64,000 bases of DNA from Raillietiella orientalis (taxonomy: Eukaryota): NCBI GenBank assembly GCA_036172245.1, contig JAYWIR010000007.1, positions 248,001 to 312,000 on the forward strand. Direction: 5' to 3'. How positions within the stretch are numbered: position 1 is the stretch's first letter; each line of letters begins with the position of its first letter. Below are positions 42,685 through 44,068 of the stretch, in pieces. A model generated the notes under the pieces. That model ran no database searches. It was not told where the DNA came from and was given only the letters and a program-made list of their open reading frames with translations. The translations under genes and the position numbers were made by a program.

Positions 42685-44068
42685 TCACTTCGAGCTCGTG
42701 TACTTGGCGGCCGCTTTCGTGCCTTAAGAGACGGTCTGCTTGGTCAGTTCTCCAGGCAACAGCGGGCCCACCGCCGTCTGCACCTCCCGGATGGTGACTT
42801 TCACCTGGGTGAGCCGGGGCGTTTATTTCTAAACTATCTCGAACAAAGTTCCCAGTCAAAGGGTACCGAAGAACGAAGGGAGGGAACCCCAACATGCAGG
42901 TCGCAACACACACCTGGAACGGGAGGGAGGAGACCACAAATAAATACATAAAAAAATATAAATAAAAATGTGGGGGAGGGTTCGGCCGTTCCTTCTTTTA
43001 GAACCGGCGTTGGATGCTGGAAATCTTCCTGATGTCTTCTGGAAGATAAGGCCACCTGGCAGCCGACGTCTTGTTCCCGTCGGCTATTCCGGTGACCTCT
43101 CATAAAATCGCCTGCGACTCCAACTGGCGGCGGGCCGTGACTATGGCGCGGATGCAACAGATCGTTGCGACGACCGCACCTAACGACAGGCCGCCTGGAG
43201 TGAAGGAGCGGCGCACCAAAATCTTTGCAGTGTCCCCTTGGTACAAGAGCACTGAAGCCAGCCTCTGCCACAGTCCTTGGAAGACACCACAGTCGAAGAG
43301 CAGATGTGGGATTATTTCCGCTGCTCCGAGTTTGGCGAGGCAACGCCCCTGGAAACAATGTTCGCGCGCTGGTTGCAATGGAAGCCCCAATGCACCAGCA
43401 AAAGCACTTCCTATTTCCAAAGAAGGGGGAACACTGAAATGTTCACGCACGAAGGAGGGACCACAAGTTTTTCGGGGGGCACACTGACGAGTTCGCTCCA
43501 CCGAAGGAGTCCCTTGGGAATATGACAAGGCGTAGCAGCGTCTGCCAGCACGCTACTCCTCCAGCCGCCCATGGGTCGGGTTGTTCCTGCGATTGTGCAG
43601 GCGACCTCCCACCTTGCCGGTAGGCAACTGTCCTCTGCCCTTGGAGCGCTACAACAAGCGCTGCGGCAAGAAATGTGGCGTCCAGGCTGGTTCACAAGTC
43701 CTGGTCCTGCAACACATCCTCCACTGGACACAATGGGAAAAGGTACACACAACGGAGTTCCACAAGGTCGAACTCCGTTGCGTGCACCGGTCGGTGTTCC
43801 CGGCTGCTGATGGTGTGCGCTGGTTGTAGTGCGGCAGGCGGGATGCCTCCGAAGTGATGCGCTCGAAGATGTTCACGGAGCTGTTCATGATCGACATGGC
43901 CTTGCTCGAGATGCCCGTGTCCGGGTGCACCTGCTTCAGCACTTTGTAGATGTAGATCGTGTAACTTTCCTTCCTCTTCCGCTTCTTCTTCTTGTCTCCT
44001 TTCGGGATGTTTTTCTGAGCCTTACCAGCCTTCTTCACCACCTTCCCACTTCCGGACTTGGGAGCCGT
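42685..44068 (-). pseudogene. H2B: Histone H2B pseudogene split by a Tx1-like insertion
   Basis: The 5' half (44068-43797) reads [35 protein letters not shown]...[17 protein letters not shown]...HYN..ISSRE, with the start codon reading ACG. The 3' half (42798-42685) reads [35 protein letters not shown]. Confidence 0.95.
42799..43796 (-). mobile_element. 5'-truncated Tx1-like element inserted in H2B; copy H
   Basis: It has the ORF2 C-terminus (RWEVAC..LADAATP; PHLLFDC..LW; LSLGAVVATICCIRAI), a T-rich UTR, and the terminal hairpin at 42799-42827. A diverged TSD lies at 42784-42798 and 43797-43811 (11/15 identical). Confidence 0.9.

Follow-up and report, generated by a model that had tools for sequence, protein, structure and literature searches.

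A solitary histone H2B pseudogene of Raillietiella orientalis split by a 5'-truncated LINE

Introduction

When a LINE is found inside a histone gene, was the gene its target, or did the element simply land there? The question is raised by a 64,000-nucleotide stretch of Raillietiella orientalis DNA (contig JAYWIR010000007.1, positions 248,001 to 312,000; hereafter the window), in which a histone H2B coding sequence is interrupted by a LINE. An initial annotation of the window had suggested that the element may belong to a Tx1-like subfamily that targets H2B.

Non-specific insertions of the L1 superfamily arise by target-primed reverse transcription and are recognised by 5' truncation and by target-site duplications (TSDs) of roughly 7-20 bp; the site nicked by mammalian L1 is T-rich. 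The target-specific LINEs described so far go to RNA genes, microsatellites, telomeres and other transposons. LINEs of the R1/R2 type sit at a conserved position of the rDNA, a tandem multicopy gene, and are co-transcribed with it; the R2 endonuclease is restriction-like, and R2 is among the target-specific LINEs that are being explored for gene delivery. Histone orphons, finally, are solitary and often defective histone copies that lie outside the arrays.

The premise of the initial annotation, that several Tx1 families are target-specific, is backed by the main text of Kojima 2015 (PMC4494074), which attributes a target preference to many families of the Tx1 clade. The targets given there are Tx1D (for Tx1L), U2 snRNA genes (Keno), (TC)n/(TTC)n repeats (Kibi/Koshi) and Mariner-N4 (Tx1-Mar); the word "histone" occurs 0 times in the text. 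The main text of a study of Characidium (PMC6136364) places Keno in U2 snRNA sequences, and what it describes in H1, H3 and H4 clones are short ERV1/Gypsy-like stretches, not a targeted LINE. No report of a histone-gene-specific LINE was found in the literature searched.

Results

The H2B pseudogene

The window has a G+C content of 47% and contains no N. The H2B coding sequence lies on its minus strand, where it runs from 44068 to 43797 and, after 998 bp of LINE sequence, continues from 42798 to 42685. The features of the locus, in the direction of the gene, and a second H2B remnant are as follows.

43812..44068, minus strand: 5' part of the H2B pseudogene, residues ~1-87 (Pfam Histone and alignment to 6dzt_D)
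43797..43811, minus strand: 5' copy of the TSD, ATCAGCAGCCGGGAA, H2B codons 88-92 as ATC AGC AGC CGG GAA (ISSRE)
42799..43796, minus strand: 5'-truncated LINE of 998 bp, in the same sense as H2B (tblastx, blastn and terminal motif)
42799..42831, minus strand: conserved 3'-terminal motif of the LINE, AATAAAyGyCCCGGC-N4/5-yCCrrGTGAAA (nhmmer E 5.3e-08); the window has eight ends of this kind
42784..42798, minus strand: 3' copy of the TSD, GTCACCATCCGGGAG (VTIRE), 11/15 identical to the 5' copy
42685..42783, minus strand: 3' part of the H2B pseudogene, residues 93-124 and a TGA stop (alignment to 6dzt_D)
61203..61247, minus strand: second H2B remnant, ATG and first 15 codons only, 86.7% identical to 44025-44069

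The 5' half of the gene (44068 to 43817) is contained in a stop-free minus-strand frame from 44095 to 43652 and matches the Pfam Histone family with an E-value of 6.7e-11. Its alignment with 6dzt_D, a solved insect-type H2B, covers residues 3-85 of that chain (E 2.2e-37, 129 bits); vertebrate H2Bs score ~99 bits. The C-terminal codons had been said to resume after the element, and indeed the stretch from 42798 to 42685 aligns to residues 88-124 of the same chain (E 6.7e-10).

No intact ORF with a start codon is left in this H2B copy. The start codon reads ACG (44068-44066) in place of the expected ATG, which is present in the homologous remnant at 61247. The Asp codon of NSFVNDIFERI has been deleted from the 5' part. 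After R85 (43819-43817), the sequence ACACC (43816-43812) represents the Ser-Thr codons minus 1 bp, giving a frameshift before codon 87. In the 3' part an in-frame TAA replaces the Glu of VSEGTKA, and the 998-bp insert separates the two halves.

The two halves look unequally decayed. Compared with canonical H2B, 11 of the 37 residues of the 3' half (42798 to 42688) are changed, and this segment hardly varies between the solved animal H2Bs listed; the histone-fold part of the 5' half has 6/55 residues changed and one codon deleted (Fisher p = 0.03). This inequality may be due to chance or to lineage- or species-specific H2B residues.

Rfam gave 0 matches at the gathering score in the whole window, and the histone stem-loop (RF00032) was not found at E<=10 in 42300-44400. 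Only one of the 237 ORFs of >=90 aa in the whole window matched the Histone family, and this is the H2B 5' half itself; among shorter ORFs (45-89 aa), the 136 located in 37.5-50.5 kb gave no match. Thus, no neighbouring H2A, H3, H4 or H1 gene was found among these two sets of ORFs, a scan that heavily decayed fragments of <45 aa would escape. The H2B copy is a solitary, dead pseudogene, and these scans bear out its earlier description as an orphon without a stem-loop or histone neighbours; the term is fair at the scale of the window. Like other histone orphons, it is solitary, lacks the stem-loop and carries disabling mutations. It differs from them in being split by a LINE and in the presence of a second, 15-codon remnant 17 kb away.

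The second remnant (61247 to 61203) breaks off long before codon 88 and therefore cannot be scored for the insertion site. This leaves one scorable H2B copy in the window that retains the codon-88 site, and it is occupied (1/1). The H2B homology of the second remnant stops after ...AAGAAGGCTGG and is followed by ~26 unassigned bases and then by a SINE-like repeat in the same sense.

The target-site duplication

H2B codons 88-92 (I-T-S-R-E) are present on both sides of the insert, constituting a 15-bp TSD whose copies are identical at 11/15 positions. Each copy differs at two positions from the inferred ancestral sequence ATCACCAGCCGGGAG, exactly as had been stated in the initial annotation. 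The internal repetition ACC ATC ACC AGC permits an alternative reading of the 3' copy, as xTC ACC ATC plus a 6-bp deletion; the TSD measures at least 15 bp under either reading. We also considered a longer duplication extending into GTGCAG. It was rejected, as the sequence beyond 43796 aligns to another LINE copy of the window (copy F, see below).

The LINE insert

The insert (copy H in what follows) has a G+C content of 55%. It contains the decayed C-terminus of ORF2, a 3' UTR, the AATAAA signal, the terminal motif GCCCCGGCTCACCCAGGTGAAA and a short A run. The ORF2 C-terminus, with remains of a Cys/His motif, is held by two ORFs (43414-43872 and 43103-43552). The tblastx homology to other LINE copies in the window extends from 43793 down to 42797, essentially the whole insert, and the partner segments are 20757-20843, 38172-39270, 508-884, 36032-36518 and 7796-8084. 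At the nucleotide level, blastn finds 70-75% identity to 20435-20668 and 36038-36515. As the initial annotation had it, the H2B copy is divided by a LINE that has the same orientation as the gene. Copy H ends in GGTGAAA, the tail typical of the family, with no H2B-derived extension.

Near the 5' junction the insert contains an inverted repeat (43742-43788), seen as a 47-bp self-match of 81% with core arms AACGGAGTTC and GAACTCCGTT. The homologous stretch of copy F does not have this inverted repeat.

The terminal motif

The 3' end of the element had been described as a hairpin. Five base pairs (CCCGG/CCGGG) can be predicted, but when six copies are aligned none of the pairs covaries, and three of the six copies, including H, each have one pair disrupted. 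The fold of the last 62 nt of copy H has a z-score of 0.05 relative to shuffled sequences. The feature is therefore better described as a conserved sequence motif. Seven of the eight family ends in the window close with at least three A after AATAAA-N20. When metagenome contigs were scanned for the terminal motif, one contig matched (L001), which is G+C-rich and has no LINE or H2B features; the match was taken as chance. The degenerate family motif had 0 matches in the contigs of prokaryote genomes.

Other copies of the family in the window

Using the terminal motif as a profile, we located eight 3' ends of the family in the whole window, designated H, B, C, D, E, F, G and I. Their positions and 3' flanking sequences are:

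42799, minus strand: copy H, flank GTCACCATCC (H2B)
37453, minus strand: copy B, flank ATCCTCAGAA
37699, minus strand: copy C, flank ACTCCCAATG
10623, minus strand: copy D, flank ACGAGACCTG
36569, plus strand: copy E, flank AAGAACTTAG
20236, minus strand: copy F, flank GCCATCGACC
1367, plus strand: copy G, flank ACGTAGAAAC
8199, plus strand: copy I, flank AAGTAACGCG

The eight flanks are unrelated to each other, and only that of copy H is histone sequence. The seven other ends all lie outside histone DNA, in agreement with a remark already made in the initial annotation. Hence, at the level of the family and within the window, 1/8 of the 3' ends lies in H2B, and independent copies joined to the same H2B nucleotide were not seen. 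In the coding part the nearest relative of copy H is copy F (75.5% nucleotide identity), and in the terminal motif it is end B (0 mismatches in 22 nt); both have non-histone flanks. The remaining copies of the window have diverged from H by 25-30%.

Two further copies are bounded by exact TSDs. Copy C (~860 bp, 37699 to ~38557, minus strand) has a 13-bp TSD, CTCCCAATGAACA, and copy D (~305 bp, within 10611-10939, minus strand) a 12-bp TSD, ACGAGACCTGCT; the chance expectations of these duplications are 0.001 and 0.005, respectively. Neither of the two targets is related to H2B or to the other target, and C and D share the 5' truncation with H. Variable 5' truncation, a TSD and an A-rich 3' end are thus found together in H (998 bp, 15-bp TSD), C (~860 bp, 13-bp TSD) and D (~305 bp, 12-bp TSD). 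The TSDs of C and D are perfect, whereas the two copies of the H duplication differ at 4/15 positions.

Given the eight different flanks and the duplications of unrelated targets by C and D, the LINE family behaves as non-specific, with TSDs of 12-15 bp and variable 5' truncation, and copy H fits this pattern.

Copy C is part of a nested structure (37453-39800, minus strand). It lies inside an older LINE, which has a 343-aa ORF (38758-39786) in its body and the end designated B as its 3' end.

LINE proteins

Copy H is truncated downstream of the reverse transcriptase (RT) and has none. In the related copy E, a Pfam RVT_1 domain is found at 35015-35611 (plus strand) with an E-value of 8.9e-11, above the cut-off. 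Among solved structures, the best match of this RT fragment is human L1 ORF2p (E 4e-4), followed by R2 proteins (E 0.08-0.3). The endonuclease domain Exo_endo_phos gave a single weak match in the window (1340-2185, minus strand; E 3.8e-4), which at 20.7 bits is below the cut-off of 24.5. Three related copies match the zf-RVT domain with 24.1 bits (37914-38396), 18.9 bits (495-1160) and 17.6 bits (35949-36251), all below the 27.5-bit cut-off. The ORF at 43103-43552 of copy H has no Pfam match itself, yet it is aligned by tblastx to the copies that match zf-RVT. The insert probably derives from an L1-superfamily-like LINE.

Searches for closer relatives of these proteins returned little. The 343-aa ORF (38758-39786) had 0 phmmer matches at E<=0.001 in 1.84 billion representative proteins, and no relatives of the 150-aa ORF of copy H (43103-43552) or of the RT ORF (35015-35611) were found in word-index protein searches. 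In the Atlas, the 343-aa ORF has zf-RVT clusters as look-alikes (score 0.97), and those of the LINE ORFs overall are generic zf-RVT and RVT_1 clusters only. Possible reasons are that the copies have decayed too far or that public protein sets cover the family poorly.

Other features of the window

A SINE-like repeat adjoins both H2B remnants. It is present in three copies that share 70-81% identity:

44542-44832, minus strand: SINE-like copy 1
60894-61190, minus strand: SINE-like copy 2
59963-60144, plus strand: SINE-like copy 3

At its head the repeat has a motif, GGTTCGAAT/GGATCGAAT, that resembles a box B. Copies 1 and 2 run into a shared body with short repeats of the GGAAGGGTCC/TTCGGAGG type, and these short repeats also occur at 44281-44430, 61393-61606 and 60462-60661. 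By visual impression the repeat could be of tRNA origin; ARAGORN reported 0 tRNAs in it, and Rfam gave no tRNA match at E<=1 in 59900-61300. Inspection by eye of the end of the repeat gave no convincing match to the LINE terminal motif.

Two probable pieces of host genes were noted. One is a protein-kinase exon (5235-5696, minus strand; Pkinase E 6.3e-15), and the other a 384-aa open frame (52152-53303, plus strand) with weak Torsin/AAA similarity (E 6e-5 and 2e-3, below the cut-offs).

Discussion

We consider it very probable that an L1-superfamily-like LINE inserted once into an H2B copy, by ordinary, non-site-specific target-primed reverse transcription. We infer both the order of events and the non-specificity of copy H's own lineage. 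As the junctions suggest, the endonuclease would have nicked the antisense strand at what is now the 3' junction, and the 3' end of the element RNA (...GGUGAAA) would have been reverse-transcribed from this nick. An early stop of synthesis, after the last 998 nt had been copied, would account for the 5' truncation. A second, staggered nick 15 bp away would have led to the duplication of codons 88-92. The H2B gene would have been killed by the insertion or would have been dead beforehand, and neutral decay would have followed. The LINE insertion itself may have been the event that inactivated H2B. Because the 4/15 differences between the TSD copies fit the decay of H2B, the insertion is old, with an age close to that of the pseudogene's decay.

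Copy H resembles non-specific LINEs of the L1 superfamily in its 5' truncation, its ending in AATAAA and a short A run, and its 15-bp TSD. In a related copy the RT fragment is, among solved structures, nearest to human L1 ORF2p, and related copies have a putative C-terminal Cys/His region of zf-RVT type, with scores below threshold. There are differences as well. The window family has a very short A tail of 3-6 A, before which stands a conserved, G+C-rich terminal motif, and no relative of its proteins could be detected in the protein libraries searched. In addition, the implied nick site of copy H, ...GGTGAT^GGTGGA on the antisense strand, is not T-rich, unlike that of mammalian L1. This speaks against a non-specific insertion, as does the sense orientation of copy H within a strongly conserved part of a multicopy gene, which recalls the known target-specific LINEs. 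Sense orientation alone, however, is expected half of the time. We also estimated how often chance would place an end of the family in H2B. With eight random ends in the window, at least one would fall within the 416 bp of H2B-derived sequence ~5% of the time, which is unremarkable for one window taken from a very large scan.

The initial annotation had raised the possibility of an H2B-targeting subfamily. On such an explanation, copy H would be a relic of a LINE lineage aiming at codon 88 of H2B (ACC ATC ACC AGC CGG GAG), much as Keno of the Tx1 clade aims at U2 snRNA genes, and the orphon would be an inactivated unit of a histone array, one among many occupied H2B units. In favour of such targeting are the orientation and the conserved position of the insertion already mentioned, and the fact that the sole H2B copy of the window still holding the site is occupied. 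The main text of Kojima 2015 (PMC4494074) provides a precedent in the target preference of many Tx1-clade families. The copies with other flanks, moreover, are only 70-75% identical to H and perhaps represent other lineages; as different subfamilies, they would leave room for a specific lineage of H, which is the third point against a non-specific insertion. On the other hand, all eight family ends have unrelated flanks, those of the nearest relatives F and B included, and D and C have ordinary TSDs of 12 and 13 bp at unrelated sites; the proposed H2B-targeting subfamily is therefore unsupported. The tail of copy H has no extension derived from the target. There is a single case, located in an isolated pseudogene and not in a histone array, and no LINE that targets histone genes was found in the literature searched. 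Taking these points together, we regard H2B targeting as very unlikely.

Copy H is like the target-specific LINEs of the Tx1 clade in that it is a putative APE-type LINE, interrupts a multicopy gene and has the same orientation as that gene. It is unlike them in that its family is found in eight different flanks, with no second insertion seen at the same site, and in that it lies in a histone gene, a protein-coding target that the main text of PMC4494074 does not name. No fixed site is evident for the window family, as there is for R1 and R2, and the RT fragment of the family scores better against L1 ORF2p than against R2.

A rearrangement or assembly join of two H2B copies around a LINE, or a chimeric retrocopy produced by a template switch from LINE RNA to H2B mRNA, might explain the unequal decay of the two halves (6/55 compared with 11/37 residues) and the imperfect duplication (11/15), but we judge these possibilities extremely unlikely: the halves abut the insert exactly at the overlapping codons 88-92, on the same strand and in the same order, as a staggered cut predicts, the insert ends precisely at the terminal motif of the family, the LINE tail of a template-switch chimera would not be followed by an H2B 3' half, and there is no N in the window to suggest an assembly join.

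If an H2B-specific lineage did exist, it would be the first case of a LINE specific for a multicopy gene that codes for a protein, here a histone, and repeated insertions at the same H2B nucleotide would extend the list of LINE targets to protein-coding arrays. As it stands, and on our preferred reading of a single non-specific insertion, the locus is a textbook example of a 5'-truncated LINE with a TSD and of little consequence. The preservation of the element inside recognisable coding sequence nevertheless makes both the site and the age of the insertion directly readable.
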